A program made the position numbers and the translations under genes. Shown here piece by piece: positions 24,172 to 45,046 of a stretch of DNA of 64,000 bases. A model generated the notes under the pieces. That model did no database searches, was not told where the DNA came from, and saw nothing but the letters and a program-made list of their open reading frames with translations. Source of the stretch: Flectonema sp. DT1601 (lineage: Eukaryota); contig OZ025791.1 of NCBI GenBank assembly GCA_964019425.1, positions 1,302,001 through 1,366,000 on the forward strand, given 5' to 3'. Within the stretch, counting starts at the first letter, position 1, and every line of letters starts with the position of its first letter.

Positions 24172-25134
24172 TTACCCCCTCTAATTATATAAGGATAGCG
24201 TACCTTTCCAATTTCGGTAGTTTTACTTCGGTCTTACGGAGACAATTTTTTTCGACGTAGCTTTTGGAGATATTAGAGAGATGACTGATTACAATTAAGG
24301 ATAATATTATTGTGCGGGAAAAAAAAAAAAAAATAATAATAATATTCGGAGCACAACCACAACCACATTAGATCTCCATCACTCTTTGGGGTGTCGCCTG
24401 TAGAAGAAATATACTTCAGATCAATCACGAAAATCAGAGAATAGTAGAAAATGAAGTAGTAGAAAAGGTGATTAGATCCATTTACCACCAAACCTTCCTA
24501 TTTCCCCCCCCCCTCCCTTTTTTTTCCTTTCGGGATATTATTGTGCGAGGAAAAAAAAAAGAGGGGAAAAAAAAAAAAAAAAAAAAAAAAAACCCGGGAT
24601 AATTCTTCCGAGTAAGAAAGGGGAGATAAAATATGCACCTGAGAGGTAAAGTACACGGCTGAACAGTCTGTTAGATTATCTTTGTGTTTGTGGATATTTC
24701 TGATGGGGGTTTTATGGTGCTGAGAAATTACTCGGTGATATCATGTCTCTTTAGTTTCCCTACCAGTAGTCGTAGTAGCGATCCTAATAGTTTCTTTGAA
24801 GCGTCCTTGCTTCTTCGCAAGAGGAAAAAGTAATAACAATATGACTAAGTATTTAGTCATTTTTTCTTTTCTCTCATTTCTTCTTCATTTTCTTCTTATC
24901 CTTCTTTTTCTTTTTGTTTCTTTTGCCTGTTTGCTGTAGGGGCTTTCTCCCCAACTCCCCAACACAGTCTTTGATTTGGATTGTTTACAAATTGTTACTA
25001 CGGCACTGAATTCATTCATTCATTCTACAGAAATAATGACCAACATTATTATATTATGACTAAGGGGATCACAGTTAACAGATATAGTACAGCTTACAGT
25101 ATAACTTTATTGATTTCCCAACACAACCCCTAAA

Positions 25135-26844
25135 ATGAAAGTACAGCCGGTCGGGTCTCTTGATGAGGCCCGATTGTTGTCCCTCTTCAGGAAATTCCTG
25201 AGTGAGGAACTGAGTGTTGAGAAGAAGAGAACGAAGAAGAAGAAGGGAGAGGCGGAAAAAACAGAAGCCAAGTGGCAAAAAGTTAGAGGTCCGCAAAAAA
25301 TAGAAAGCTCAGCGAAGAGAACAGCCATTGCTCCGGGTAAGAAGGACGGATACTATGGCGCCTTACTGAATATGGCGAAGAAGCCTGATACGAAGTCGAC
25401 CCAGCAGATTAAGACCCCGCTGATTAAGACACCTCCGTTAAAAACTCTGCCACCTTCATGGCAGAACATCACTTTACGACCAGAAGACTGGGTTTTACCG
25501 GTTGTCACTGCTACGACAGCCTTCTCAAGTATTAGCAATACCTCTGGTATTTTTATTTGTAACCCAGCAGACGCAGTCCTGGCGTCTCGCAAACAAGGTG
25601 ACTTTTCAGTCATCACTCACAAACAGTTGGAAGGTAGCACTCGGCTGACTTTTCCAATAATCATCAACGGAAAAACGTCGTCGCGTACTGGTTGGATCTC
25701 GTCCTACGGCAGCACGAAAGCCCCTCTCAGAACCCAACAGAAGTCTGAGAGAAACGTTAAAAATTGCGTAGTGTTATTTCACGCGCATAAATCTTATTTT
25801 GCTGAGAAGGTGGAAGTCACTCCGGACTTTCTGATGACACGCGCACGAGCAGCATACCTCAGTGCGTTCGGCGAAGAGATCGACAGTCACCTGGTGTGGC
25901 CATCAAAACAGAGGGAAACCTCTAATAAAATTAGAACGGTGAACATGCGAATTCCGTGTACGCGCGTTCACAAGCTGTCGTTGGAGGTCACAGTCAACGG
26001 CCCAGACGGGTATTTTGTCACATTGCCGAAATTTACCCAGGACAGTATAGATGCAAAATTAAGCATCATCATGCTACAGACAAACGATCTTCAGCAGGCG
26101 AAAAACATCGGGAAGTCCCTCAACTCTCCGGTGACTTTCTTACGTGGTACAAACAAACTAGGAATAATCTGTTCGGCATCAATGACTGACCAAACACGTT
26201 CATCGCTTGGAGAGCTTGCATGTCCTGCTCCACCGGTAGGAGATAAATACAGAATCTCTGGTGATCATGTGGGCCGCCTTTCTCGGAGCCAACTATGGCA
26301 AATCTGTAATAGCCATGGTTGGGAAATTTCGACCTGTACCCACTTCAGCAGGAAAAATTCGAAGACGAACATGAGGTCTAGTCATTGTATAGTAGTGGCA
26401 CGGACGTCGCCTCCCAGCTCGGTCCTGTGGGCTGATGACTTCTTCATCACAGTGAATGCTGTGTCTTCAACACTTCCAACGCAGAAAGATTTCCCGGCCT
26501 TGGGAAAGTCGGATGGGGATGTGGCAATGGATAATAACAGCCAGTGTTACAAAACACCTATTGACACGCCGATTGGAACCCCTTTACAACTCCCTAGTCA
26601 GCCCTCTGAGCCTTCCAATGCTGAGATCATGCAGCAACTGCAGACGCTCAACCTTACCATAGATGGATTACGAAGGGAACTGGCCGCGGAGAAAGAAGCA
26701 AATCAGAAACTTAGAGATAAACTGGGTAAATCCAACAAAGATCGCGAACGCCGCAGCGGTAGAGATTCCACCGACCAGCGCCCTCGGGCCAACTCTCACG
26801 CTGATATGGCGGCTCAACTGAAGCACAACCAGTCAGCCCAGTAG
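25135..26844 (+). CDS. Retrotransposon ORF1 protein (basic, C-terminal coiled coil)
   Basis: 569-aa Lys/Arg-rich ORF directly upstream of and in frame with ORF2, with the coiled coil IMQQLQTLNLTIDGLRRELAAEKEANQKLRDKL. Confidence 0.8.
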   Translation: MKVQPVGSLDEARLLSLFRKFLSEELSVEKKRTKKKKGEAEKTEAKWQKVRGPQKIESSAKRTAIAPGKKDGYYGALLNMAKKPDTKSTQQIKTPLIKTPPLKTLPPSWQNITLRPEDWVLPVVTATTAFSSISNTSGIFICNPADAVLASRKQGDFSVITHKQLEGSTRLTFPIIINGKTSSRTGWISSYGSTKAPLRTQQKSERNVKNCVVLFHAHKSYFAEKVEVTPDFLMTRARAAYLSAFGEEIDSHLVWPSKQRETSNKIRTVNMRIPCTRVHKLSLEVTVNGPDGYFVTLPKFTQDSIDAKLSIIMLQTNDLQQAKNIGKSLNSPVTFLRGTNKLGIICSASMTDQTRSSLGELACPAPPVGDKYRISGDHVGRLSRSQLWQICNSHGWEISTCTHFSRKNSKTNMRSSHCIVVARTSPPSSVLWADDFFITVNAVSSTLPTQKDFPALGKSDGDVAMDNNSQCYKTPIDTPIGTPLQLPSQPSEPSNAEIMQQLQTLNLTIDGLRRELAAEKEANQKLRDKLGKSNKDRERRSGRDSTDQRPRANSHADMAAQLKHNQSAQ

Positions 26845-29800
26845 CAATCAATCGCTCCCATTCCTGACAACATATTTCATGAAACAGTAACAGCCCGTAT
26901 TAACCTCTTACGCTCAGGGATCCACCCTAATCCTGGGCCTCTTAGGGTACTCTCATGGAATATGAGAGCTTATAAAACATCGCGTTCACATCTCGATGCT
27001 ATTATCGAAGCTCACGACCCTGATATTATCCACCTCCAGGAAACTTGGTTGAAAGCAGACGTAACCGATGATCAACTTGGTATTACAGGATATTCATTAT
27101 TCCGCCGTGATAGGTGCGACTCTTCTAAAATGGGAGGCGGTGGACTTCTTTCTTATTTCAAAAAGTCTCTTGGTACGGTCCAATTAGAAGTAGGTAAGCA
27201 TCCATCCGCTGTTGAGGTTATCCATTGCAGTTTCTCGACTTCCATGGGCATATTTAGAACTTTTAATATTTACATCCCACCGAAGGTGTGCCAGCTGCCC
27301 TCTTCTATGTTTTTGGGGGATCTAGCAGTAGGTGATTTCAATGCACATCATGAATCTTGGTCGCGTCGAATTCCTAAGGGGTGCGTCTCTTCAGGAAGGA
27401 TAGTAAATGAATGGATTATAAATAATGGATTAGCTATTGAACCTCTGGCTCCTTCTATTCCTGCTCATGGTACAACGCCCGATTTATTATTGCACTCGCC
27501 GCAGTTCAAGTGTCTGCGTTCGCTGCAGATTGATGCTGGGCAAGTTAATTCCGATCATACCCCAATTGTTGCAGATTTTAATGTGACTCCCCTCACTGTA
27601 CCGGTAGCTATTCCGGCTCATCGTATATGGTTCAAAAACAGTTTTACGGAATCTCATTGGTCCTCCTTCTCCGCACAACTTGACTCCCATTGTTTTAGAC
27701 TTAAAAGGATACGATCTTTAAATAAACTCTGTGACAGTTTTGTTCGAACAATAGAATCTGTTGCGATTGATACTCTTCCAAATAAGTGGCACAAAGAATC
27801 TTTCCGGGTTAAACGCAAACATCGCCATTTGGACCCTGAACTTATTCTAATCGACGGTTGTAAGAAGGGCTTTAGCTGGACTTATAAGAAATTACGAGAA
27901 CTGAAAGGAGAGTCAACGGTTATTGAGACCCCGCAGGTGAACGTCGGAGCGCTCAAACGTCGCTTTTTCCCTGATTCTTCTGACAATCGTCCCTTGCTTA
28001 TTCCGCATACTTCAAAGGTGGATTTTTCAGAACCCAGTTGCTCTCCTTTTACAATGGCAGAGGCCCAAGCAGTTTTTAATTCTTTGAAAAAGTCTGACGG
28101 CTCCGGTCCGGATTCTATAAGTAACAACATGATTTATCATTTTGGAGATATGGCTAAGGAAGTTCTCCTACGTATTGCAAACTGGTCTTTCCAGAGAGGA
28201 ACCTTCCCGAAATGTTTGAAAGTAGCACATGTTCTCCCTATTCTAAAAGGTAGCAAAAAGGACCCGACTGATGCCGCCTCCTATCGTCCTATCTCATTGA
28301 CCTCAGTAGTTGCTAAATTCATTGAATCCCTTGTCCATTTTAGATTAGAACATCTGCTGATTTCTAAACTAGACCCTAAACAATCTGGGTTTGTTCCTGG
28401 TAGGTCAGCGGAGGAAAATATAGCCGTTATGATCGAAGCTGCAGCTGAAGTTAAAAACAATTATGAGAAATGTGCAACGATGATTTTCTTCGATATCTCG
28501 GGTGCGTTTGATAATGTGGATCACCATATTCTAATGAGTAGGCTTACAACACTCATCCCAGTCCCTTATGTAAGGTGGATTGGTAATTTCCTCTCGGACC
28601 GAGTAGCGCATCTTCTCCACGGCCATAACCGTACAGGCCCGATTTCTTGCAAAAAGGGGGTCCCACAAGGCAGTATTCTAGGACCGCTCTTATTCCGTGT
28701 GTACGTGAACTCCCTACCGGATGCCATCACAGCCGATTTAAAGCTGTTATACGCGGATGACTTGACAGTGTTTGTTAGTGGCTCTTCGGTTAGTGATTTG
28801 GAATCCAAGGCGAACAATGCCATAGGACAAGTGGAGAACTGGCTCGCTGATTCAGCAATGTCCCTCTCTCTGAACAAGACTGAATTTTTGGCATTCGGAG
28901 GACGTTTCTCAGACAGAAGTATTTGTAGACTTCCAAGACTTTATTTTCCCTCTACGGTGGACGATATCGACCTTCCCCGTGGCTCTGCCGACTTCATCAG
29001 GATACATCAGGATGATGGTGCCGCAGCTCTGCTCAATTTCAAAACAGGACCGGTATACCCACTTGCAATTAATGGTAACTACCTTGAGACCCGCTCTCAA
29101 CTTTCACAAAGGACGCCAAAGGGTTCTTTCGTTCTAAAGGCTGCAATCCCTCTAAGGCGTGTGTCGCAGTCGCGGTATCTAGGCATAATTATCGACGATG
29201 ATTTATCTTTTACATCGCAGTTAGCTCACCTATCAAATACCCTAAAGCGGGGAATCGGCTTGATTTCGATAGTTTCATCTTTTAAAATCAAAACGGAAGT
29301 TCTCCGACAAACAATCTATGGGCTGATCCTCTCTAGGGCCTATTACGGACTAGCTTCTTATGCACCCTATATCAAGCAGAATTCTTTGAAACTTATTGAG
29401 AATACACTTCGTTCACTTCAACTAAGACTGACGGGATGCTCCAAATCGACCTCCTCAACTGCATTATCGGTAGAATCTAGTATTCCCCCGTTCAAACTAC
29501 ACGTGGCTAAAGTCCTGGCTTTATCCTACGAACGTTTCCTGAGGCTCCCAGACGATTGCCCGACTCGGTCGTTGGTTCACCCTGAAAAGTCTAGCTCGTG
29601 GAAACTCTACGCAGAACCCCATGCCAAGACTTATGTGACCCCTAATGAAAGATCAATGCTCTGCCTACCGCATCACCAGACTCCTTGGGGACCACCCCCG
29701 GATGTTATTATCAATTCCTGGGCAGATTTCCGTAAGTCCATGGACCCATGCAAGAATTTGTTAGCTGCACTTGGAAAAATTAAGACCCTCCCAAAGTCAG

Positions 29801-30969
29801 TGGCCTCGCTGTATACAGATGCATCCTACTTCCAAGATAAAGAAAGTAACTACCATTGTGGTAATGCAGCAGTTTTAATCTTTGGAAAGAGATGCATCAA
29901 AGAAATACATCGTTACGACCCATCTCTGATGATTTATAATGCCGAGCAACAGGCTCTGTTATCAGCAGTGAATTTGATTGAAAAGTATTCGTCTTGCCTG
30001 CCAAGTGGGAGGATTAATATAATCACGGATAGTCAGTCAGCACTTCGAAGTCTTGAGCGTGGACATCTGAAGCAACATTCAGCGACTAATGCCGAATTAT
30101 TTAGGAGAATATCGCTGCTCCAGCGTCCGATCACCCTACAATTTGTCCCCTCACACTGTGGGATCATCGGAAATGAAATGGCCGATTCTCTCGCCAACAA
30201 AGCAGCGGCTTCTGCTATTCCCTTAACAGTGGTCAAGTTTGACTACAGGATGACCCAATGTTCAGTGAATAATAAAATCCGAAGAAACTGGTACGAGCAG
30301 CGCAGTACATCACATGTGCACTCTTTATCGACAATGGGCAGAGGTGCTCAACGCTTCCACCCGGATCTTAACCGTGAGGGAGAAATGCAAATCGCCCGCC
30401 TCAGGACTGGACACCATCCGCTTGTGAAGCAACCAAGAAAGGGATTATCAAACTGTCTCTTCTGTAATAAAAGAGATACAGATACTCACCATTTACTATC
30501 GAAATGTCCGGAGACTAAGATGTTTGTTCAAATTCACTTCCCACAGATGGTATTTAATGATCAAGATGAGGATGTGGGTCAACATCTACACAAGTTTTTT
30601 GCTACTGAAAACCAATTGGCTCTCATATCGCTCTTGAATGACCTCAGGAGCCTACACGACAGCTTCCCGTTACGTCGAGCGGTCCCTCGACAACGTCTTG
30701 TCAAATATTTGTCCGTTCATTCCACTGTTACCACACTTGATTCGAAGTGTAAGGAGGAAGTCAGAAAACTGATCTCAGAAGTTTATAACGCAAATGAAAT
30801 CGAAAAAGTCTACGACCATTTGTGGGACTTGGAGTTATACTGTTTCTTGAATTCGGATAAAAACAAAAACCAACATTTTAACTCATTCCTGGAGAAGATA
30901 AGGTCTTCTAAATTTACTCGGATCGATCCAGTGTGGTTCGATTCAAATAAATGGCTGCTGCCAACCTAG
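26845..30969 (+). CDS. Retrotransposon ORF2: 2A-like peptide, AP endonuclease, reverse transcriptase, RNase H, CCHC finger
   Basis: APE motifs: VLSWN, LQETW, GDFNAHH, TPDL, SDH. RT motifs: YRPISLTS, QSGF, FDISGAFD, GVPQGSILGP, YADD, YLG. RNase H motifs: YTDAS, AEQQA, TDSQS, VPSHCGIIGNEMAD. Zinc finger: CLFC...HLLSKC. The frame is open from the codon after the ORF1 TAG; the first ATG is at 26962. Confidence 0.95.
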   Translation, partial: QSIAPIPDNIFHETVTARINLLRSGIHPNPGPLRVLSWNMRAYKTSRSHLDAIIEAHDPDIIHLQETWLKADVTDDQLGITGYSLFRRDRCDSSKMGGGGLLSYFKKSLGTVQLEVGKHPSAVEVIHCSFSTSMGIFRTFNIYIPPKVCQLPSSMFLGDLAVGDFNAHHESWSRRIPKGCVSSGRIVNEWIINNGLAIEPLAPSIPAHGTTPDLLLHSPQFKCLRSLQIDAGQVNSDHTPIVADFNVTPLTVPVAIPAHRIWFKNSFTESHWSSFSAQLDSHCFRLKRIRSLNKLCDSFVRTIESVAIDTLPNKWHKESFRVKRKHRHLDPELILIDGCKKGFSWTYKKLRELKGESTVIETPQVNVGALKRRFFPDSSDNRPLLIPHTSKVDFSEPSCSPFTMAEAQAVFNSLKKSDGSGPDSISNNMIYHFGDMAKEVLLRIANWSFQRGTFPKCLKVAHVLPILKGSKKDPTDAASYRPISLTSVVAKFIESLVHFRLEHLLISKLDPKQSGFVPGRSAEENIAVMIEAAAEVKNNYEKCATMIFFDISGAFDNVDHHILMSRLTTLIPVPYVRWIGNFLSDRVAHLLHGHNRTGPISCKKGVPQGSILGPLLFRVYVNSLPDAITADLKLLYADDLTVFVSGSSVSDLESKANNAIGQVENWLADSAMSLSLNKTEFLAFGGRFSDRSICRLPRLYFPSTVDDIDLPRGSADFIRIHQDDGAAALLNFKTGPVYPLAINGNYLETRSQLSQRTPKGSFVLKAAIPLRRVSQSRYLGIIIDDDLSFTSQLAHLSNTLKRGIGLISIVSSFKIKTEVLRQTIYGLILSRAYYGLASYAPYIKQNSLKLIENTLRSLQLRLTGCSKSTSSTALSVESSIPPFKLHVAKVLALSYERFLRLPDDCPTRSLVHPEKSSSWKLYAEPHAKTYVTPNERSMLCLPHHQTPWGPPPDVIINSWADFRKSMDPCKNLLAALGKIKTLPKSVASLYTDASYFQDKESNYHCGNAAVLIFGKRCIKEIHRYDPSLMIYNAEQQALLSAVNLIEKYSSCLPSGRINIITDSQSALRSLERGHLKQHSATNAELFRRISLLQRPITLQFVPSHCGIIGNEMADSLANKAAASAIPLTVVKFDYRMTQCSVNNKIRRNWYEQRSTSHVHSLSTMGRGAQRFHPDLNREGEMQIARLRTGHHPLVKQPRKGLSNCLFCNKRDTDTHHLLSKCPETKMFVQIHFPQMVFNDQDEDVGQHLHKFFATENQLALISLLNDLRSLHDSFPLRRAVPRQRLVKYLSVHSTVTTLDSKCKEEVRKLISEVYNANEIEKVYDHLWDLELYCFLNSDKNKNQHFNSFLEKIRSSKFTRIDPVWFDSNKWLLPT

Positions 30970-31388
30970 CGTTAATTGTTAATGCTCTACGAGTGCTTTA
31001 GTATATTATCAGTGTAATTGTTCTATCCCGTTTTAATTTTGATGATTTTTATTTATTTATTATTAATTTTTTTTTTTGTTTATTTTATTTTATTTTATTT
31101 TATATTTTTTTTATTTTTTATTTTTTTTTAGTTCGATAGTTTAATAAGCTAGGCGAGGCGGAAAGCTGGAGATTGGTATTTATTAATCTTTCAGTCGATG
31201 CTACTTCAACAATCCATGCGAAATCTTCGGATATGGCTACGGATTGGGTCCTCTGTTACTGTGAGTTACCTAGCACTCATAATATACAGTAACGTTGGAT
31301 TAAATAACTAACTAACTAACTAACTAACTTATAGTAATCCTTTAACTCAACTCACGGCAGGTTTAGTTTGAACTTCAAATACATAAAA

Positions 31389-32640
31389 ATGACCGCCCGT
31401 TTAGAAGTTATGAAGCAGCACCTCACTCCTTACAGAGTTGTAGACACTCCGTACAGAGAGGAGATGATTGCCACTTGCAAGGCGATCACCCGTCCAGGAA
31501 AGGGACTTCTCGCAGCCGACGAGTCAGTCGGTAGCTGCGACAAGAGATTCAACCCAATCGGATTAGAGAACAACGCTGAGAACAGAAGAAGATACAGAGA
31601 CCTCATGTTAGGAGCTGAAGGACTTGAACAGTACATCAGCGGTGTGATCTTCCACGAGGAGACTCTTTACCAAAAGTCTGACAGTGGAGTCGTATTCCCA
31701 GAGCACCTTCGCAAGCTCGGAGTTATCCCGGGAATCAAAACTGACAAGGGAATGGTTGCATCCGGTTCAGGTGCACCAGGTGAACAATGTACTCAGGGAC
31801 TTGATGACTATGAGAAGAGATGCTCGAAATACTACTCTGCTGGAGCTCGTTTCTGCAAGTGGAGAAATACCTACAAGATCCAGAACGGAACTGTTTCTGA
31901 CTATTTGATTCACGCCAACGCTGAGACCCTCGCGAAGTACGCGCAGCTGTCACAGAGAGTTGGATTGGCTCCGATTGTTGAGCCTGAAGTTATGATTGAT
32001 GGTGACCATGATTTGGCTACCTGTCAGGCTATCACTGAGAAGGTTCAGGCTGCCGTAGTGAGTGCTCTTCACCGTCACGGGGTCATCTTCGAAGCGATGT
32101 TGTTGAAGCCTAACATGGTTGTCTACGGTGCTGATTCGGGTAAAACTGGAGTTCCTGTTGAGGTTGCTCGTGCGACCGTCACCACTCTTTCCCGTACCCT
32201 TCCAGCAGCAGTACCGGGAATTACCTTCTTGTCAGGTGGTCTTTCTGAGGGACAGGCATCGGCGTACCTTAACGCGATGAACCAGATCAGTGACATCGCG
32301 AGACCATGGGCACTCACATTCTCATATGCCAGAGCTCTTCAGTCATCAGCTCTTAAGGCGTGGAAGGGTAAGGACTCAAACAAGAAGGTTGCTCGTCAGG
32401 TATTCCTTCACAGAGCCAAGATGAACTCGAAGGCTAACCAGGTATGTTCTTCTTCTTTTTGCTAAAGTACTTCTTAATCATGTGGTGATTACGATTTTAG
32501 AGAACCTTATATTTTTGATAAATTCATTCACATCATTCTGATAACTACTTACTATAATTAAAAAACAGGGTGTTTACGATGCCAACGAGGACACAGCAGG
32601 TTCCCAAACGTCTCTCTACGTTAAGGGACACACTTATTAG
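31389..32640 (+). CDS. ALD: Class I fructose-bisphosphate aldolase with PTS2 (glycosomal/peroxisomal type), copy 1; exons 31389-32441 and 32569-32640
   Basis: Motifs [31 protein letters not shown] and [10 protein letters not shown]. The N-terminal RLEVMKQHL fits the PTS2 consensus RLx5HL. Intron 32442-32568 yields the canonical C-terminal SLYVKGHTY. Confidence 0.97.
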
Positions 32641-33178
32641 GAGATTCATTTTGTGCCAATAGCTTGCAATGAGCTGCTTTGGAAAGCATTTGAAAAAAAA
32701 GAAAAAAAGTAAAGTAAAGTAAAGTAAAATAAGTGCGTTACGTGCGTAAGTCTATTCTAGCTTATATTCCTCTCTCTATCCGATGAACACGTCTTGTGGC
32801 TCTTGGTGTTTTACTTTGCAAATATGACTGACCTCTCAGGGAGGATGCGATGCCCCCTGAGTGTTCACAATATAGTGCAAGTTCCCTCTTTTGTTCTGCT
32901 ATCTGTAGGGCTATTTGATTTTGTTGTGTTTTTCATATGGAAAAAAATAATCTCTTCTGTAATTCAGGTTCGTTGTAGTATGTGGGTATGTCTCCAATTG
33001 TGTTATATTGATAATAAGACTGGTTAAGTGTGATTAACATCTACTGACTCATCTTGAAGAAGGTGGGAAATGTTTTCAATGTGATCCTGAGCGAGGAATT
33101 GCGGAGACATTGCAATGACATGTTACGAAAGTTTTATAATTTATTCGGACATCAGATACTAACAAACCTATCGCAAAA

Positions 33179-34382
33179 ATGACCGCCCGTTTAGAAGTTA
33201 TGAAGCAGCACCTCACTCCTTACAGAGTTGTAGACACTCCGTACAGAGAGGAGATGATTGCCACTTGCAAGGCGATCACCCGTCCAGGAAAGGGACTTCT
33301 CGCAGCCGACGAGTCAGTCGGTAGCTGCGACAAGAGATTCAACCCAATCGGATTAGAGAACAACGCTGAGAACAGAAGAAGATACAGAGACCTCATGTTA
33401 GGAGCTGAAGGACTTGAACAGTACATCAGCGGTGTGATCTTCCACGAGGAGACTCTTTACCAAAAGTCTGACAGTGGAGTCGTATTCCCAGAGCACCTTC
33501 GCAAGCTCGGAGTTATCCCGGGAATCAAAACTGACAAGGGAATGGTTGCATCCGGTTCAGGTGCACCAGGTGAACAATGTACTCAGGGACTTGATGACTA
33601 TGAGAAGAGATGCTCGAAATACTACTCTGCTGGAGCTCGTTTCTGCAAGTGGAGAAATACCTACAAGATCCAGAACGGAACTGTTTCTGACTATTTGATT
33701 CACGCCAACGCTGAGACCCTCGCGAAGTACGCGCAGCTGTCACAGAGAGTTGGATTGGCTCCGATTGTTGAGCCTGAAGTTATGATTGATGGTGACCATG
33801 ATTTGGCTACCTGTCAGGCTATCACTGAGAAGGTTCAGGCTGCCGTAGTGAGTGCTCTTCACCGTCACGGGGTCATCTTCGAAGCGATGTTGTTGAAGCC
33901 TAACATGGTTGTCTACGGTGCTGATTCGGGTAAAACTGGAGTTCCTGTTGAGGTTGCTCGTGCGACCGTCACCACTCTTTCCCGTACCCTTCCAGCAGCA
34001 GTACCGGGAATTACCTTCTTGTCAGGTGGTCTTTCTGAGGGACAGGCATCGGCGTACCTTAACGCGATGAACCAGATCAGTGACATCGCGAGACCATGGG
34101 CACTCACATTCTCATATGCCAGAGCTCTTCAGTCATCAGCTCTTAAGGCGTGGAAGGGTAAGGACTCAAACAAGAAGGTTGCTCGTCAGGTATTCCTTCA
34201 CAGAGCCAAGATGAACTCGAAGGCTAACCAGGTATGTGTATTTAGTTTAAATAATTATTCTATTGAGAGAGTACTGATAAGTCTTACGAAGTAAATAATA
34301 ACCACCGCAGGGTATCTACGATGCCAACGAGGACACTAAGGGTTCGGAGGAATCGCTTTACGTTAAGGGACACACTTACTAG
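33179..34382 (+). CDS. ALD: Class I fructose-bisphosphate aldolase with PTS2, copy 2; exons 33179-34231 and 34311-34382
   Basis: Exon 1 matches copy 1; intron 34232-34310; exon 2 encodes [23 protein letters not shown]. Confidence 0.97.
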
Positions 34383-35029: not shown

Positions 35030-37379
35030 CAGGTCAGGTGGGATTATTCAAGTCGTTGCGTGTTACGTGATATTGTCGTATCATTCATTTTGAAATTTAT
35101 TTCTATTTTCAATTCCTCAACATGTAGGACTGTCTGTTCCCTTTGTGTCTTTTTCAATTAGACTTTCAGCACATTATTAAAATCACTTTCTACCTTCGTC
35201 AGATGTCGAAGAAAATTGAGAAAGCGTTGTCTTGGGTAACGTTATGGATTCCACCAGACAAATGGGACGTGAAACAAACCAAATGCGAGAGCTCAGAATG
35301 GTTTAGTGCTGGAGTACTAGCGGGTTCGGCTTGGTTTTTAGTCTTTTTGAACTTCGGGTTCTCGTGCGTCTTAGAGTTGCTGGCGGGTTTTTATCCCATG
35401 TTTTTAGAAATGGCACCTGTTGGAAATGGGGCCATATTCGGCTTAACAGCGGTTGCGTTTTCCGCTGCGTTTGCTGCTTTCGTACATCATCTAACCCATA
35501 TAACACTCGAGGTTGGTTGCGCAGTTTACACCACTTTTCTTGCCTGCATAGTTTCCCATTTGAATCTGTTGTTTTACGTGATTGCTGTTGTGTTAATTTG
35601 CTGCTACACAATTGCGTTCCTGACACAAGGACTTATCGGTCAGGTACTGTTTGCCTTAAAACAAGAAAAGACAATTTGTATTGTTGATGAATATTGTAGA
35701 ATATTAGCACCATCTACTTGTGGAACTGATCCTCTCTCTCTTGAGGGTGAGGTATTTACCTCAAGCTTACTGGGTGTTGGTTGTGATGAGATTGGATCAT
35801 TTACTTGTTACACTGACTGTGACACTGCTTCTTCTTATTTATCAACACCTATTGAAGTGAATGAGATTCCTCTGATATTAACTTCCATATATATACTCAT
35901 TGGATGGCTGGCTGCTCTCTATTTCAAGTTTCACTTTAGCAAATTTTCAAAAAGATTCGATGAAAAAAAAGGCACATTCCTTTTCACGATTTTCTGTTTT
36001 CTCCTTCCAATGTTTTTACTGACAGTAACGAGTATGTATGTCTACAGCAATACTGGTTTTTCGAATGAAAAATGCGGAGCCGTGAAACGGGTTGAGACAA
36101 CCTCAAACAAATGTGTTGGAGGTCACAAAAACAATCAGCTATCTCAACTCGTGTACTTGATACAGGTCCCACAGAGTATCTTTAATCAAACGAAAAGAAA
36201 ATACACTTTAGCACAGACTGACTGCAGACAAGATACAACATTAACTGACAGAATTAGAAACGGTTGTTATATTTCTTCAAGTGGATCTGAAATCAAATTA
36301 AGTCAACTTCTTGATTCGGGAGTAGAGTTTGGAATATTTTATTACTCTTTCTGCATTTGTGTTTATTTATTTGCGCAGTTTCTTTGGGCTCGTGAAGATG
36401 CCCCAGAAGACACTTCTGCCGAGGATATGATTATCATCAATGAACCTTCCTCGGAATCATGTGGACCTCCCTTGGAGTCATATGAGCCTCCTCTTTCAGA
36501 TTCATTTGATCAGGTGGGAGTACCTCCAGTATGTGTTCCACCATCAGAGTCCTCGGTGCCTTCTGGTCGGTTGAGTGATTCGATTTCTCATATGCCGGGG
36601 TTGGTGATCCAACCCCATCACATGGGTAGGGCATCTGAACCGCCACCTTTGAATCCATTTCGTCTCCAACGTGAAGGAATGCATCCATTATGTGTTCCAC
36701 CATCAGAGTCCCCAGTGTCATCTGGTGTGTTGCAACCTCCGTACCCGATATCGAATTCATCCTTTAACGAAGGTCTTTATCCAACAAGTCACATGGGTAG
36801 GTCATTAGGACTATCAACTCATCACGTGGAGTTAGCTCCCAGTAGAAGTTCTTCGTTTAACAATCCATCGCTGAGTCAATCTGTGGATTCTCTACACCTC
36901 CAGCAGCCGTATGATGAGAATCCTCTTCCAAGAGTTTCGGATTACCCAGAGTTAGCTCCTCCTGTTCGGAGAGTTCGAGAGTTTTCATTTCGTAATCCTC
37001 CTCATTGTTAGTAACGATCAGTTAGTGTTGTTAATTCTTCATTGAAGGAATCATCTTTAGAAAGAGAAAATATACGAAGACCTCGTTCACTTTCTCAGTT
37101 ATTGATTTAGTTGTCAACATCTACACAGTAAGTACTTTGGTATTGAATAAGAGTTCAATCCTGGAGGGTCATCATTGATGATCAGCTCAAGTCTTTTGTG
37201 ACTTCTTTTTTTGCACAACCAAAACTATTTAAACGGTTTTCGATGTGGTAAAAAAAAGACATGCTAAGTCTGAAACTTTTTCTGCCTTAGCGCTGGTTCG
37301 TATTTTTTGATTGACTTTCGTTGCGAAAAAACAAATTGAATAATTGCTTTTCTTTTCCCTCTTTATTTTAAAAGCTATT

Positions 37380-37419
<40 letters not shown>

Positions 37420-39346
37420 CCCTATTATTGTAAATTTTATTTTTCTTACTCACAATGTAATATTTACTTAACTTCGGATTTTAACTATTTTTCACAAAAA
37501 GAATTATGTGAAAAGTCAAAAGAATGATCAAAATATCCATCACACCGAGTAGTAGATATCTGTTTGTTTCATTCTTTGTGATGTTTTAAATCAGTGAGGC
37601 GCTAATACGTGGATCGTCTCTCTTTACTGTAGAGACCACTTCAGTGAGTTGCCTCGAAAAGGTTTCTTGCTAATACATAGATCAGGTCTAAAATAACTAT
37701 TTTCCCTTTTGTGTACATGCATGATGTTGTTCTGTACGAGAGGTTGTATCTGTACCTGCGCCAATCTTATTTAGTTTGGTTTAGTTTTTTTTTCTTTTTT
37801 TCTTTTTTTCTTTTTTTTTTTTTGTCATTCTTTGTTTGCCAAAAACAAAATTACTGTTTCGATTTAGTGGGTACCACCTGGTTTTGTTTGTGCGCAACCA
37901 GAAACAACGTCTATAAAGTAAAGGCGATAACCTTACGCTGCCACAATTCTCTCTTCGCTCGTAAAACATGTATTCGAGATGGAAAAAAAAAATGTGACAG
38001 ATATAATTGTACAGCTGCCATCACCACACACACGTGGGGGTGCTCTTTTTATTGAAGCGTGAGAATTATTTAGTGAAGTGTCGATTCTTTCTTGGGATCC
38101 AGTCCCTGGTTTCCTTTCCTCTTTTTTTTCTCTGAACAGCAGTTTTTTTTCTTTTTGTTTTCCCATCTCGTATCGGTACTCATCGAGTCAAAAGCGTCGT
38201 TTAGCTCAATTCCGGCCAAGGTCATTTTATTATGGTCTGGCGCAGTTATGATTAAACTGACTGTCTTCTTGATCTTTTTGTTTTCATTTCTTGCTGAATG
38301 ATATGGCTATGTGCTGCCCAATTCTTGTGGTACTTTTATAAAGCTTTCGGTAAGCCCACAGTACAATTATAATGCTTTGGACAACTGGGTGAACGATCCT
38401 CGGTGGGTTTCTATTGTCTTTCGTGGTATGTGGGCATATGGCAGATATAGTCGTATTACAAAGAAAGATGTTGTGTATGGAAGAAAGGGGTTTTTTATTT
38501 ATCCAAGTCCCCCCTCACATCTAGAACTAATGTTAAATTATCGTTATGTTGTTTATGATACAAATGCACTTGTATTTTTACGTACAAAATCGAACGGTTA
38601 ACTCCCCCTTTTGTTTACATTAAGTTAAACCCCCACATCAAATTACCCCACTCCGAAGGTATAATTATCCTTTTTATGTTTTCTTTGATTAACAACTACA
38701 AATGTCTTTTTCAGTCAAGTACTTAATATTAATTTGTTATTAGTACCTAAAGTGTTATTGTTGTTAAGGTTTCACTCCCACTCTCGGATCATTTCTCTTT
38801 TATTTTCTTTAGTTGTTTTCAACCTGTTAGCCTCTGGGTAAGGTGGGAGCTGAAGTCGATCATTTCTAGCGGAAGCTGTGAAACTACAATCTTCGCGATT
38901 GGATCCTTACTGATGCGGGCTACCCAGACCCCTCGTAGTCATCAGTTCTGTATTTTGATAACTAACTATTGCAAACTTATATTATGATCGCTCTAGTTGA
39001 TAAAAATAGTTCTTCAAAGGTTGTTTAAATTGAAACTAAATAATTTTTTTTTAATTTTTTAAAAACCTTTATTGTAGTCGTAACAAAACGTGCGATATTT
39101 TTGTTTTGTTTTTACTTTTTCCGTATAATAATATTTTCTACATTCCGTACAATTATTTTCTTAAACACGTTTTTTTTTATTAAAAGCCCTTTAATTTCCC
39201 CTTTGTTTTGCCCCCTTTAAAGGGGTACAAGTATGAACACGTTTTTTTTTTTTTTTTTTCCACCGGAAGAAATACAACTTCGTTAAGCAAAATCAAATTT
39301 ATGCTGACCCGTCATGGCGATAAGAAATATTTCTGAAACTGATTTA
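35030..39346 (+). repeat. Segmental duplication unit (TM gene plus downstream spacer plus PIBF1 upstream region)
   Basis: Near-identical to about 46122-49985 plus 51410-51630, apart from the variable 5' part of the TM gene, one inversion, small indels and the TIR insertion. Confidence 0.9.
35203..37011 (+). CDS. Multi-pass membrane protein with Cys-rich loops and Pro/Ser-rich tail, copy A
   Basis: About 7 hydrophobic segments; the ATG directly follows the acceptor-like CCTTCGTCAG; two near-identical copies lie downstream. No family recognised. Confidence 0.75.
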   Translation: MSKKIEKALSWVTLWIPPDKWDVKQTKCESSEWFSAGVLAGSAWFLVFLNFGFSCVLELLAGFYPMFLEMAPVGNGAIFGLTAVAFSAAFAAFVHHLTHITLEVGCAVYTTFLACIVSHLNLLFYVIAVVLICCYTIAFLTQGLIGQVLFALKQEKTICIVDEYCRILAPSTCGTDPLSLEGEVFTSSLLGVGCDEIGSFTCYTDCDTASSYLSTPIEVNEIPLILTSIYILIGWLAALYFKFHFSKFSKRFDEKKGTFLFTIFCFLLPMFLLTVTSMYVYSNTGFSNEKCGAVKRVETTSNKCVGGHKNNQLSQLVYLIQVPQSIFNQTKRKYTLAQTDCRQDTTLTDRIRNGCYISSSGSEIKLSQLLDSGVEFGIFYYSFCICVYLFAQFLWAREDAPEDTSAEDMIIINEPSSESCGPPLESYEPPLSDSFDQVGVPPVCVPPSESSVPSGRLSDSISHMPGLVIQPHHMGRASEPPPLNPFRLQREGMHPLCVPPSESPVSSGVLQPPYPISNSSFNEGLYPTSHMGRSLGLSTHHVELAPSRSSSFNNPSLSQSVDSLHLQQPYDENPLPRVSDYPELAPPVRRVREFSFRNPPHC

Positions 39347-39551
39347 CAAGAAATTTGGAATAAAGTCCCCGAACTTACTGATGAAGGTCTAAAAGGGACA
39401 GGTGGTATAAGATTAAGGCCTGAAACTACATGTTCCTCACTAACTAACAAACATGTTTAATGTCTCAACGAACCTTTTTGATTGATCTGATTTATAATAG
39501 CAATTGTTCACTCATATTTATTTTTTCACTCATTTTTTTTAACTCACTTAT

Positions 39552-40123
39552 CATAGATGGAAGTGCCCTACAATTTGGAGGGCGTGTAGAGCGCTTTTAA
39601 TATAAATATTATTTTAGAGGGCGCTTTTTTTTACCTTTTTTATTACTATAAGACAGCTAAATTGACGGGGACTTACACTGACGCACAAGTATTTTGACGC
39701 AGAAGCCAATTTTCTTTTTTTTTGACATGCTTGGCAGTCTTTCGAAAAAGAGAAAACAGGTGTCACGGGGTTCGAACCCGAGACCTCCAGGTCATGGTTC
39801 GGCGGTCAACAATGGCAAAAACAATGGGTCACTCCTTGAGAGCTTCCGGAGCCTGCTGCAATCCCTGAAGCTGAAACTCATTTCAGTGGACGATGCATCC
39901 CAGATCTACAAGGAGCTGATTAGCCCGCAGAATGCACCGAGTCGAATATAGAGGGATTCAAGGAGGGAGAGTGCGTTCTTGCTAACCTGTTCATAGGCCG
40001 GTCTTCACGGTACCTTGTGAGAAAAAAAAGAAGTTTACTGGTGGCAAGTAAACTGATATCCCAGAGACGCATTTGATCGGGTGAACAGGCGCCCTCCAAA
40101 TTTGGAGGGCACTTCCATCTATG
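39552..40123. mobile_element. Non-autonomous TIR element (MITE-like), copy 1
   Basis: Termini CATAGATGGAAGTGCCCTACAATTTGGAGGGCG and CGCCCTCCAAATTTGGAGGGCACTTCCATCTATG form inverted repeats of about 33 nt. The interior matches 44337-45046. Confidence 0.85.
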
Positions 40124-40385
40124 AAAGAATTTAAAAACTAAAAAAGGAATAAACAATGTTATCATTGTTTTTTTTAATCGATCGGCTATGTCGATTAATT
40201 TCTATTTTCCGTCCTGGTCAAGACGCTAAACTGATTGTTTTTTTTTTTTAAAAAAAATAAATAATAAAAGAATATCTAAAAAAAAAATAAACAATGTTAG
40301 CATTCCATTATTTTTTTTAACTCAATTATTGTTAATTTTGACCTTTCATAAATCACTATTTACTTCGTCACTCCAGAGGCATAAG

Positions 40386-40700
40386 ATGGCCAGGGCAGCT
40401 GTTGAAAATGTCTGTTTGAGTGGATCTGGTTCTGACTCCTCGCGGGAAATGGCTTCAGAAGAAGATGAGGATAGTTTTGTTTTTAACAACAGCTACTCGA
40501 GCGTAGGGAGATCTATAATAACAGAGAGACTGCTGAACAGAAGGCCAGACTTGCTCCACATCACAGTCCTCGGTGCCTTCTGGTCGGTTGAGTGATTCGA
40601 TTTCTCATATGCCGGGGTTGGTGATCCAACCCCATCACATGGGTAGGGCATCTGAACCACCACCTTTGAATCCATTTCGTCTCCAACGTGAAGGGAACAT
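40386..40700 (+). pseudogene. Chimeric pseudogene: decayed PIBF1 5' fragment fused to a fragment of the TM gene tail
   Basis: About 40386-40552 matches PIBF1 51718-51930 with a 15-codon deletion and frameshifting indels. About 40565-40695 matches TM gene 36549-36678 and then jumps to the TM gene 3' flank. Confidence 0.85.
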
Positions 40701-42191
40701 CTACACAGTAAGTACTTTGGTATTGAATAAGAGTTCAATCCTGGAGGGTCATCATTGATGATCAGTTTTTTTACGCAACCAAAACTATTTAAACGGTTTT
40801 CGATGTGGTACATGCTAAGTCTGAAACCTTTTCTGCCTTAGCGCTGGTTCGTATTTTTTTGATTGACTTTTTGTACCGACGTAGTCGGAGGAGAAACTAT
40901 TCAGATTGAAAGTCGTTATTTCTTATAATCATGACTTATGATTTATTTCCCCGTGCGACAGGATTCTGTCTGCTTTCAACTCGTCAGCTTGTAATTTGCT
41001 TACTAACTTAAGAAAGATGCTTTAATTTCAGCCACCGAAACCAACTATTATTTGTTTGTTGTCCTACGAACTTTTAGCATTTGATTTTGATTAACTGATA
41101 TTTAGTTATTCTAACTTATCTAATTTAACCATCTCGGGTACCGAGAAGCGTCTTCGTACTTCTGGCGGTGCCATGAGACTCAGACGGAGATATAGAATAC
41201 TGTATGAACATGAGTGGAAACCTTTTTATTTTTTTTTATTATTCATCCCTCTAAATATACCCCTTAAAAGAAGAATTCTAAAAAAAAGAAATAACGCGAA
41301 AATAATAAAGAGGGCATTTTTTTTTTTCCCCATAAAAAAAGTCGAATAAAGAAGTAAAGGCCCCCATTTTGTTTGGAACTAATGTTAAATTATCCTTATG
41401 TTGTTTATGATACCATACATCGAGAGAATAAAGTTCCAGGTGAGATTTGGACTGTTAGCTTTTGGCTAAGGCCCTCCCTGAAAGGCAAGAACAAAAAAAC
41501 TACTCACACCTGAAGAAAACATACACAAAGAACACACATACAAGTACATCACATCGCTTGCTGAACCTCCATCGATCTGCTTCCATCGTCCCTTGGCAAA
41601 AACAGGTAACGGAAAAAAAGCAAGACAAACCTGTTTTAATTGTGTTGTAATTTTAGCAGAGGATTTGAATAACAGGGAAAGAACAAGTGTTATTTTTAAA
41701 AACAATGCCAGGGAAGTATTTTACGTACAAAATCGAACGGTTAACTCCCCCTTTTGTTTACATTAAGTTCCCTTTATTATTTTTAACCCTTTAAAAGGGG
41801 TCCAAGTATGTAATTTTCTTTTCATTTTTCTTACTCACAATGTAATATTTACTTAACTTCGGGTTTTAACTATTTTTCACAAAAAGAATTATGTGAAAAG
41901 TCAAAAGAATGATCAAATGTCCATCACACCGAGTCTTGTGATGTATTAAATCAGTGAGGCGCTAATACTTGGATCATCTCTCTCTCTAGTGTAGAGATGG
42001 TGTTGTTATGTTAAAGTACAGGTCAGGTAGGATTATTCAAGTCGTTGCGTGTTACGTGATATTGTCGTATCATTCATTTTGAAATTTATTTCTATTTTCA
42101 ATTCCTCAACATGTAGGACTGTCTGTTCCCTTTGTGTCTTTTTCAATTAGACTTTCAGCACATTATTAAAATCACTTTCTACCTTCGTCAG

Positions 42192-43988
42192 ATGTCGAAG
42201 AAAATTGAGAAAGCGTTGTCTTGGTCTCCGTTTTGGGAAGCGGAGCTGCGGGAAAATCGAATCGACCGTTCGAATAAGAAGCAAATCTTTTCACAAATGT
42301 TCGTGGTTTGGTTTATTTTTGCAATGAGCTGCTTTCTGTCATTCGTTTATTTACGTCTGTATACTTATCCCATGGTTTTAGAGATGGCGCCCGTCAATGC
42401 AGGTGGACTTATATTCTTAGCAGTGATCATATTTTTCGCTGTAGCTGCTGCATTCTTTACTGTTATTGTCACCAGTTCAACACTCGAGGTTGGTTGCGTA
42501 TCTTACACTACTTTTCTTGCCTGCATAGTTTCCCATTTGAATCTGTTGTTTTACGTGATTGCTGTTGTGTTAATTTGCTGCTACACAATTGCGTTCCTGA
42601 CACAAGGACTTATCGGTCAGGTACTGTTTGCCTTAAAACAAGAAAAGACAATTTGTATTGTTGATGAATATTGTAGAATATTAGCACCATCTACTTGTGG
42701 AACTGATCCTCTCTCTCTTGAGGGTGAGGTATTTACCTCAAGCTTACTGGGTGTTGGTTGTGATGAGATTGGATCATTTACTTGTTACACTGACTGTGAC
42801 ACTGCTGCTTCTTATTTATCAACACCTATTGAAGTGAATGAGATTCCTCTGATATTAACTTCCATATATATACTCATTGGATGGCTGGCTGCTCTCTATT
42901 TCAAGTTTCACTTTAGCAAATTTTCAAAAAGATTCGATGAAAAAAAAGGCACATTCCTTTTCACGATTTTCTGTTTTCTCCTTCCAATGTTTTTACTGAC
43001 AGTAACGAGTATGTATGTCTACAGCAATACTGGTTTTTCGAATGAAAAATGCGGAGCCGTGAAACGGGTTGAGACAACCTCAAACAAATGTGTTGGAGGT
43101 CACAAAAACAATCAGCTATCTCAACTCGTGTACTTGATACAGGTCCCACAGAGTATCTTTAATCAAACGAAAAGAAAATACACTTTAGCACAGACTGACT
43201 GCAGACAAGATACAACATTAACTGACAGAATTAGAAACGGTTGTTATATTTCTTCAAGTGGATCTGAAATCAAATTAAGTCAACTTCTTGATTCGGGAGT
43301 AGAGTTTGGAATATTTTATTACTCTTTCTGCATTTGTGTTTATTTATTTGCGCAGTTTCTTTGGGCTCGTGAAGATGCCCCAGAAGACACTTCTGCCGAG
43401 GATATGATTATCATCAATGAACCTTCCTCGGAATCATGTGGACCTCCCTTGGAGTCATATGAGCCTCCTCTTTCAGATTCATTTGATCAGGTGGGAGTAC
43501 CTCCAGTATGTGTTCCACCATCAGAGTCCTCGGTGCCTTCTGGTCGGTTGAGTGATTCGATTTCTCATATGCCGGGGTTGGTGATCCAACCCCATCACAT
43601 GGGTAGGGCATCTGAACCGCCACCTTTGAATCCATTTCGTCTCCAACGTGAAGGAATGCATCCATTATGTGTTCCACCATCAGAGTCCCCAGTGTCATCT
43701 GGTGTGTTGCAACCTCCGTACCCGATATCGAATTCATCCTTTAACGAAGGTCTTTATCCAACAAGTCACATGGGTAGGTCATTAGGACTATCAACTCATC
43801 ACGTGGAGTTAGCTCCCAGTAGAAGTTCTTCGTTTAACAATCCATCGCTGAGTCAATCTGTGGATTCTCTACACCTCCAGCAGCCGTATGATGAGAATCC
43901 TCTTCCAAGAGTTTCGGATTACCCAGAGTTAGCTCCTCCTGTTCGGAGAGTTCGAGAGTTTTCATTTCGTAATCCTCCTCATTGTTAG
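42192..43988 (+). CDS. Multi-pass membrane protein, copy B
   Basis: Nearly identical to copy A beyond about residue 110, with a different N-terminal segment. Confidence 0.75.
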   Translation: MSKKIEKALSWSPFWEAELRENRIDRSNKKQIFSQMFVVWFIFAMSCFLSFVYLRLYTYPMVLEMAPVNAGGLIFLAVIIFFAVAAAFFTVIVTSSTLEVGCVSYTTFLACIVSHLNLLFYVIAVVLICCYTIAFLTQGLIGQVLFALKQEKTICIVDEYCRILAPSTCGTDPLSLEGEVFTSSLLGVGCDEIGSFTCYTDCDTAASYLSTPIEVNEIPLILTSIYILIGWLAALYFKFHFSKFSKRFDEKKGTFLFTIFCFLLPMFLLTVTSMYVYSNTGFSNEKCGAVKRVETTSNKCVGGHKNNQLSQLVYLIQVPQSIFNQTKRKYTLAQTDCRQDTTLTDRIRNGCYISSSGSEIKLSQLLDSGVEFGIFYYSFCICVYLFAQFLWAREDAPEDTSAEDMIIINEPSSESCGPPLESYEPPLSDSFDQVGVPPVCVPPSESSVPSGRLSDSISHMPGLVIQPHHMGRASEPPPLNPFRLQREGMHPLCVPPSESPVSSGVLQPPYPISNSSFNEGLYPTSHMGRSLGLSTHHVELAPSRSSSFNNPSLSQSVDSLHLQQPYDENPLPRVSDYPELAPPVRRVREFSFRNPPHC

Positions 43989-44336
43989 TAACGATCAGTT
44001 AGTGTTGTTAATTCTTCATTGAAGGAATCATCTTTAGAAAGAGAAAATATACGAAGACCTCGTTCACTTTCTCAGTTATTGATTTAGTTGTCAACATCTA
44101 CACAGTAAGTACTTTGGTATTGAATAAGAGTTCAATCCTGGAGGGTCATCATTGATGATCAGTTTTTTTGCACAACCAAAACTATTTAAACGGTTTTCGA
44201 TGTGGTACATGCTAAGTCTGAAACCTTTTCTGCCTTAGCGCTGGTTCGTATTTTTTTGATTGACTTTTTGTACCGACGTAGTCGGAGGAGAAACTATTCA
44301 GATTGAAAGTCGTTATTTCTTATAATCATGACTTAT

Positions 44337-45046
44337 CATAGATGGAAGTGCCCTACAATTTGGAGGGCGCTTGCAGGGCGCTTTTAATATAAATATTATT
44401 TTGGAGGGCGCTTTTTTTTTACCTTTTTTTACTATAAGACAGCTAAATTGACGGGGACTTACACTGACGCACAAGTATTTTGACGCAGAAGCCGATTTTC
44501 TTTTTTTTTGACATGCTTGGCAGTCTTTCGAAAAAGAGAAAACAGGGTGTCACGGGGTTCGAACCCGAGACCTCCAGGTCATGGTTCGGCGGTCAACAAT
44601 GGCAAAAACAATGGGTCACTCCTTGAGAGCTTCCGGAGCCTGCTGCAATCCCTGAAGCTGAAACTCATTTCAGTGGACGATGCATCCCAGATCTACAAGG
44701 AGCTGATTAGCCCGCAGAATGCACCGAGTCGAATATAGAGGGATTCACGGAGGGAGAGTGCGTTCTTGCTAACCTGTTCATAGGCCGGTCTTCACGGTAC
44801 CTTGTGAGAAAAAAAAGAAGTTTACTGGTGGCAAGTAAACTGATATCCCAGAGACGCATTTGATCGGGTGAACCGGAGAAAAGTCAAATAAGATGCGATT
44901 TGACCCTCGCTGAGGGCAGGGGTGTGTCAAAATGAGCTCGGCATTACATTAAATTTAATTAAAAAAGCGCCCTACGCGCCCTCCGGCGCCCTATTTTGGC
45001 CCTACAAATTTTTGTGGCTGATTTTCGCCAGGCACTTCTATCTATG
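44337..45046. mobile_element. Non-autonomous TIR element (MITE-like), copy 2, with target-site duplication
   Basis: TIRs CATAGATGGAAGTGCC / GGCACTTCTATCTATG are flanked by ACTTAT on both sides (44331-44336, 45047-45052). The paralogous empty site with a single ACTTAT is at 40934-40939. Confidence 0.92.

Follow-up and report, generated by a model that had tools for sequence, protein, structure and literature searches.

A candidate readthrough and StopGo cassette at the ORF1/ORF2 junction of a LINE retrotransposon from Flectonema

The translation of ORF2 from the bicistronic RNA of LINE retrotransposons has been described as unclear (PMC3708506). Several LINEs, namely L1Tc, Ingi, Ingi-1_AC, CR1, L2 and Rex1, carry a 2A peptide just before the endonuclease; its presence there correlates with the loss of ORF1, and it has been proposed as a replacement for ORF1 down-regulation, while CR1-26_BF, CR1-53_BF and CR1-1_LG are described as having both 2A and ORF1 (PMC3708506, PMC3894237). 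In Cordylochernes scorpioides, a 2A-like peptide is placed between fused ORF1p and ORF2p domains (PMC13405545). As regards stop codons, the hexamer CARYYA behind UAG or UGA promotes readthrough in plants, in yeast-like contexts and in human cells (PMC4132726), and readthrough into a reverse transcriptase has been described for murine leukaemia virus and for the LTR elements Tca2 and VdLTRE5 (PMC8310308, PMC3441728). The position of a 2A ahead of the endonuclease is established for LINEs, but readthrough feeding a 2A would be new as far as the open-access literature goes, in which no LINE combining readthrough with a subsequent StopGo was found.

Anatomy of the element and of its ORF1/ORF2 junction

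The window, by which we mean the whole stretch of 64,000 nucleotides of contig OZ025791.1 from Flectonema sp. DT1601 that was analysed, contains an intact two-ORF LINE retrotransposon of a marine protist (Table 1). ORF1 and ORF2 share one reading frame and are parted by one stop, and the ORF2 frame, which starts with QSIAPIPDNIFHETVTARINLLRSGIHPNPGPLRVLSWNM, remains open for 1374 codons (26845-30966). According to Pfam, an AP endonuclease is followed by a reverse transcriptase of the non-LTR type, as is characteristic of APE-type LINEs, and among solved proteins the latter comes nearest to human L1 ORF2p (entries at E about 7e-16) and then to R2. Dispersed near-identical and 5'-truncated copies, which are typical of LINEs, were present as well, since the ORF2 protein cluster has 15 members on different contigs, many of which are C-terminal pieces. 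A search for target-site duplications returned only AT-rich matches of 8-9 nt across the flanks, and the ends of the element are not fixed. The product of ORF1 is likely an RNA-binding ORF1p, to judge from a structure model (pLDDT 59.7) in which tandem alpha/beta domains and a long C-terminal helix are predicted. The RRM matches of this model are weak (best E 0.003), the atlas matches of ORF1 do not exceed 0.80 and serve as leads only, and ORF1 had no match in Pfam. The strongest predicted RNA folds of the element are located at the start of ORF1 (25060-25240, z about -3.2) and just past the RNase H core (30100-30280, z about -4.0), hence away from the ORF1/ORF2 junction. Just downstream of the element there is a tandem, near-identical pair of aldolase-like genes (31338-34294), which we take to resemble class I fructose-bisphosphate aldolase, and a membrane-protein frame of 623-627 codons is present in three tandem copies at 35128-48091, the first of which differs in its N-terminal part.

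Table 1. Features of the LINE and of its ORF1/ORF2 junction, in positions of the window.
Feature	Position	Strand	Remarks
ORF1, 569 aa + stop	25135..26844	+	likely RNA-binding ORF1p
Lone in-frame TAG between ORF1 and ORF2	26842..26844	+	preceded by CAG (Gln)
CAATCA	26845..26850	+	fits the CARYYA readthrough hexamer (motif as given in PMC4132726)
Linker, from stop to Gly of NPG/P, 31 codons	26845..26937	+	without in-frame ATG, GTG or TTG
Predicted RNA stem-loop	26871..26964	+	begins 26 nt past the stop; weak readthrough-stimulator candidate
2A-like peptide, 21 residues	26878..26940	+	with GIHPNPGP as its core octamer (26917-26940)
Predicted skip point	between 26937 and 26938	+	
AP-endonuclease domain	26941..27567	+	Pfam PF03372 and PF14529, PDB alignments; motifs intact
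Reverse transcriptase domain (YADD)	28255..28893	+	PF00078, E 1e-36
RNase H domain	29806..30207	+	PF00075, E 1.1e-9
CCHC-like zinc knuckle near the C-terminus	30454..30507	+	read by eye
ORF2 stop codon	30967-30969	+	

The junction has the arrangement known from CARYYA-type readthrough, in which UAG or UGA is followed by CARYYA in the same frame, in the form of TAG-CAATCA. From the base composition, CARYYA would occur by chance at one site with a probability of about 1/420. It was found at 6 of the 1373 codon pairs of ORF2, and of the 19 stops that close long plus-strand frames of the window it follows only one, the ORF1 stop itself. The shared frame and the hexamer together point to readthrough. 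The joint TAG-CARYYA/NPGP pattern had no match in 100 shuffles, a result that is not independent because the pattern was drawn from the site. It should be noted here that the identity of the stop codon and the hexamer were read in one copy, relatives being compared as proteins. The use of TAG as a sense codon was ruled out, as four long host frames (up to 2036 codons) contained 0 TAG versus 294 CAA or CAG codons; since these frames were defined as stop-free, the evidence against reassignment is their length. The stem-loop at the junction (z = -2.48) was equalled in stability by 4 of 200 shuffles and ranked 8th when 100 windows of the element were compared, which makes it unexceptional. Gln is the last residue in three of the four full-length ORF1 families and Lys in the other, so that the Gln-ending ORF1s weakly match a CAR-stop-CAR context. 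A MAAQL-like motif near the ORF1 C-terminus (26806-26820) recurs in all four of these families despite the variable ORF1 tail, its Met lying in frame 12 codons ahead of the stop.

The original prediction had placed a 2A-like motif directly behind a stop in a leaky-type context, 31 residues from the stop to the G/P bond and abutting the AP endonuclease, and this anatomy was borne out. GIHPNPGP lies in the same frame as TAG-CAATCA; its NPGP, which begins at 26929 and yields the predicted count of 31, is the single occurrence across the six frames of the window; and the match to solved endonucleases begins two residues beyond the site (residue 2 of 1ako and 6wcd, where their alignment starts, is paired with residue 34 of the ORF2 frame). 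No usable AUG precedes the endonuclease. The first in-frame AUG of ORF2 is Met40 (26962), which lies past the conserved SWN strand, and a start there would remove the first endonuclease strand including the conserved Asn. Both AUGs of the linker are out of frame and open frames of 3 and 6 codons. Near-cognate in-frame codons (ATC, ATT, ATA) are present at linker codons 3, 6 and 10.

Conservation within the family and in its relatives

The element was compared with its own family through protein clusters, in which placements may repeat one locus across assemblies and one placement is presumably the window itself. With this proviso, the ORF1 cluster has six members, comprising four full-length variants (7 contig placements) and two broken pieces, and the 15 members of the ORF2 cluster comprise four full-length variants (7 placements) and 11 pieces. 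All four full-length ORF1 variants, the most divergent copy included, end at the same residue. The four full-length ORF2 variants were all annotated with Met40, an internal residue, as their start; the 15 ORF2 members include no ORF1-ORF2 fusion; and ORF1 and ORF2 variants occur on the same contigs. As read from these proteins, the stop at the end of ORF1 is a family trait.

The conservation of the 2A-like motif among related elements had been set in advance as a test that could refute the prediction, and the motif passed it: in a sister family of 10 members that is 59% identical to ORF2 overall, it is kept in all four members with an N-terminus (P0004, P0024, P0025, P0031). Residues 12-32 of ORF2 are identical to P0024 at 20 of 21 positions, whereas identity amounts to 2 of 11 over residues 1-11, to 58% in the endonuclease and to 70% in the reverse transcriptase. 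The score of 20/21 is tied for the highest, being reached by 10 of 1354 overlapping windows and exceeded by none. In length, this conserved block corresponds to a 2A peptide. This pattern suggests that the 2A-like peptide is under strong selection. Conservation at the protein level implies translation of the linker, for which the own family offers no AUG. In the sister family, however, an AUG stands 29-30 codons before G/P in all four members with an N-terminus (P0004 has two Met residues, of which the second can only be encoded by an AUG). The sister family being AUG-led, the tandem cassette is not shared by the whole clade. On the sister-family contigs a search for full-length ORF1 came back empty, which is a weak absence given that the search library also missed the ORF1 of the window itself.

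In a third family, which is 53% identical, an ORF1 homologue and ORF2 share their contigs. Among the 15 listed members of its cluster of 18, five have an ORF2 annotated from about residue 80, which suggests that this family may likewise have no AUG ahead of the endonuclease. ORF1 homologues share 27-39% identity overall, and the nearest named one, from Flectonema neradi, is 39% identical over the full length; judged by this one homologue, the host is probably a diplonemid. ORF1 also terminates as a protein of its own in the third family, in a fourth sequence and in Flectonema neradi. In a quick tree, families 1-3 were joined with full support, their branching order being left as a fork. A word-based ORF1 search gave matches confined to the own family, and in a search with the ORF2 N-terminus for Flectonema ORF2 none of 206 candidate proteins under 755 aa scored.

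Possible routes to the ORF2 protein

In keeping with the original prediction, which the evidence supports in part, we propose that a minority of ribosomes reads through TAG-CAATCA into the linker and ORF2, and that the 2A-like peptide then makes these ribosomes skip the Gly-Pro bond, which would free ORF2p from ORF1p. The main product would be ORF1p of 569 aa, and the minor one would be ORF1p extended by one residue plus 31, that is 601 aa. ORF2p would comprise 1343 aa, starting from the Pro two residues before the first endonuclease strand, and where skipping is incomplete a fusion of 1944 aa would appear. Readthrough would hold the ratio of ORF2p to ORF1p low, and StopGo would leave the endonuclease with a free N-terminus. 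In our estimate, readthrough of the TAG is quite likely and native skipping at G/P fairly likely; the combination of both steps is somewhat better than an even proposition. For the diplonemid LINE clade, we regard as evenly balanced the view that CARYYA sets the reverse transcriptase dose and a Gly12/His14 StopGo frees the enzyme within a cassette of ~100 nt, the sister family being AUG-led. If this view is correct, the clade would contain a natural switch between the two-ORF mode of expression and an Ingi-like one, the latter represented by the AUG leader of the sister family.

The non-canonical motif, which lacks the usual D and E, had been regarded as a caveat. Gly and His do stand at these positions, but each of them is documented in active StopGo sequences, and the caveat on 2A-like activity appears weaker than first stated. 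The StopGo core was recently expanded to (D/G/C/N)(V/I)ExNPGP, with Gly12 included (Li et al. 2026, PMC12846837), and the peptide fits 7 of its 8 positions, the exception being His in place of Glu14. In the same source, His14 is a rare functional variant that is over-represented in the Asp12 and Gly12 sets, rare variants have about 90% activity or more, and the active His14 test case is DVHPNPGP, hence one with Asp12 and not Gly12. The viral dataset of that paper contains GIHPNPGP 10 times and GVHPNPGP 5 times. The 12-20 conserved upstream residues with a Leu-rich part that are required of StopGo sequences are present in the 2A-like peptide; the upstream motif 5 of PMC12846837 ends with (A/G/S)G at position 12 and goes with Pro15, and the motifs assayed there were 1, 3, 4 and 6, motif 5 lying outside this set. 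In a scan of P2A, E14H was the sole tolerated change at D12, E14 or N16 (10.64898/2026.09.24.754024). Among 10 HPNPGP peptides of a human-cell screen, 2 skipped, 2 showed fall-off only and 6 did not skip (PMC13405545). The 27 Gly12-type rows shown in this screen (the first 30 of 70 places, with 3 dropped as another type) included 10 with skipping, 5 with fall-off and 12 without skipping, one of the last ending with LLLRSGIEPNPGP; G[IV]HPNPGP was not found among the peptides of that screen. No test of Gly12 combined with His14 was found in the open-access literature. The invariant upstream Trp that defines Class B 2A (Rao et al. 2025; PMC12338488) is absent from the 31-residue linker.

The published screen bears on the possibility that readthrough is real and skipping is poor, or is replaced by stalling and drop-off, in which case an ORF1p-ORF2p fusion would be made or the peptide would act as a second damper on ORF2p. 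We consider this rather unlikely. It is favoured by the lack of skipping in human cells for 8 of the 10 His14 peptides and, among the Gly12-type rows shown, for 17 of 27, by the lowered protein abundance that was the majority outcome for retrotransposon 2A-like peptides (PMC13405545), and by the Asn at position 7, where F2A has a critical Leu; however, the peptide is conserved at 20 of 21 positions including NPG/P and sits exactly at the endonuclease start, and the screen used 20-mers in human cells, whereas 2A activity rises with longer native context (PMC12338488). Termination at the TAG with AUG-less reinitiation in the linker, of the kind proposed for mammalian L1 (PMC5972666), after which StopGo would trim a variable leader to a uniform ORF2p N-terminus, is quite improbable in our view. 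Such reinitiation needs neither the same frame (1 in 3) nor CARYYA (about 1 in 420), even though termination-reinitiation is a described route for SART1 and L1 ORF2 (PMC3708506, PMC5972666), caliciviruses tolerate start-codon changes in this process, near-cognate codons occur in the linker, and the sister-family AUG lies at a nearly equal distance from G/P.

Production of ORF2 from a separate RNA, through spliced-leader trans-splicing or through cis-splicing at the AG of the TAG that would drop the stop, seems very unlikely. Euglenozoans do trans-splice and diplonemids have GT-AG introns (PMC10161547), an AG is present in both CAG and TAG, and three in-frame GT donors are found within 450 nt upstream. 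These donors are weak GTG sites, however, no pyrimidine tract is present (C+T amounts to 45% in the 40 nt ahead of the AG), and on a trans-spliced RNA AUGs one and two would be out of frame while the third is Met40, which bypasses the conserved peptide. The least probable explanation, and one that is largely refuted, is that the TAG is a nonsense mutation or an assembly error in a single-ORF element whose copies are dead. The full-length ORF1 variants share their end residue down to the most divergent one, there is no fused member, the ORF1 homologues of two other families and of Flectonema neradi also end separately, and both ORFs are otherwise intact. Readthrough followed by StopGo is the reading that we retain below.

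Similar arrangements elsewhere and comparison with known systems

Outside the clade, a G[IV]HPNPGP ending was present at 16 loci of a metagenome scan. By reading, 10 of them are Leu-rich before this ending (2 PHD-endonuclease LINEs, 1 Helitron, 4 zinc-finger ORFs and 3 others, the one tested of these three having no Pfam match), and the remaining 6 look like chance. The ending stands at the head of ORFs from mobile elements that are unrelated to one another, and it is also borne by the LINE protein P0006. A wider DNA scan returned 11 LINE loci, all of them distant, 4 of which have GD[IV]H-x-NPGP ahead of the endonuclease. On the basis of these sequences His14 appears to be common in mobile-element 2A-like peptides. 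None of these four distant 2A-bearing loci has the stop plus 2A cassette, and among the upstream in-frame stops of 15 metagenome loci CARYYA follows only one, without a long ORF1 in frame. This locus, L007 (57-150), is a PHD-endonuclease LINE with G-I-H-P-NPGP and a TGA-CARYYA 55 codons before G/P, with no Met between them and only 41 codons upstream of the TGA in that frame. Its relative L014 (78-180), likewise a PHD-endonuclease LINE with G-I-H-P-NPGP, has TGA-CGG, another readthrough-like context, 53-55 codons before G/P, and just upstream a weak match to an HDV ribozyme (E 2.7, below the family threshold), L007 being similar by eye. Both loci more probably represent elements with one ORF and a 5' ribozyme, and chance may account for the hexamer of L007. 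Scans of viral contigs, of metagenomes (with a narrow pattern) and of prokaryote genomes gave no DNA of a close relative, and the two matches to TAG-CARYYA plus NPGP in viral contigs were both out of frame.

These scans also turned up other elements. A Helitron-like ORF (PF14214) in L003 opens with a Leu-rich GIHPNPGP 2A-like peptide (591-622). The related AT-rich loci L001, L008, L011 and L016 have LLRSGIHPNPGP before C2H2 zinc fingers, with endonuclease VII in L011, and may represent an element of DNA virus-like or Polinton-like type in which StopGo is used. Eukaryotic LINE ORFs were encountered in prokaryote-MAG contigs (L019, L022-L024, L026, L025, L027, L029), probably as host contamination; the contig of L029 measures 813 kb.

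If our reading is correct, two recoding events in series would constitute a new route to ORF2, and a 2A could sit behind ORF1 and need not replace it as Odon and Luke proposed. A leaky stop with a 2A would be a simple device for making a free second protein at a low dose. The cassette is short and has a natural control within the clade, the AUG-led sister family with the same peptide, which makes the proposal directly testable. Among eukaryotic mobile elements, StopGo sequences that end in G[IV]HPNPGP may have been under-counted.

Compared with the 2A-bearing APE LINEs, the element shares the 2A-like peptide directly before the AP endonuclease and the APE-RT-RNase H layout, and the AUG leader of 29-30 aa in the sister family fits their single-ORF plan. 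It differs from them in its long in-frame ORF1, in a 2A without an AUG of its own, and in the 2A core, which is G-I-H-P-NPGP here and D-V/I-E-x-NPGP in those elements. Unlike members of the Ingi/L1Tc clade, which have a single ORF and no ORF1, the element has a 569-aa ORF1 on the same contigs as ORF2. This clade is also marked by a 5' HDV-like ribozyme (the Pr77 hallmark); between 24300 and 31400 of the window there was no Rfam match to a ribozyme at E up to 1, a search that divergent forms could escape. With the Gly12 motif 5 of StopGo (as described in PMC12846837), the peptide has in common the Leu-rich stretch leading to (A/G/S)G at position 12, Ile13, Pro15 and NPGP, and it differs by His at position 14 and Asn at position 7. 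The fusion in Cordylochernes scorpioides is one protein, apparently without a stop that meters ORF2 (PMC13405545). Type I viral readthrough, as in tobacco mosaic virus, likewise has UAG-CARYYA ahead of the polymerase frame (PMC4132726), whereas here the element is a LINE, in which the product of readthrough would be divided again 31 codons further on. Tca2 and VdLTRE5, unlike the present LINE, are described without CARYYA (PMC8310308, PMC3441728). With these two elements and murine leukaemia virus, the LINE shares the arrangement in which a structural protein is encoded in frame with the reverse transcriptase and one stop lies between them. The gag-pol-type fusions of those LTR elements and retroviruses are processed by a protease, whereas in the LINE described here, for which Pfam revealed no protease domain, StopGo would separate the two proteins instead.
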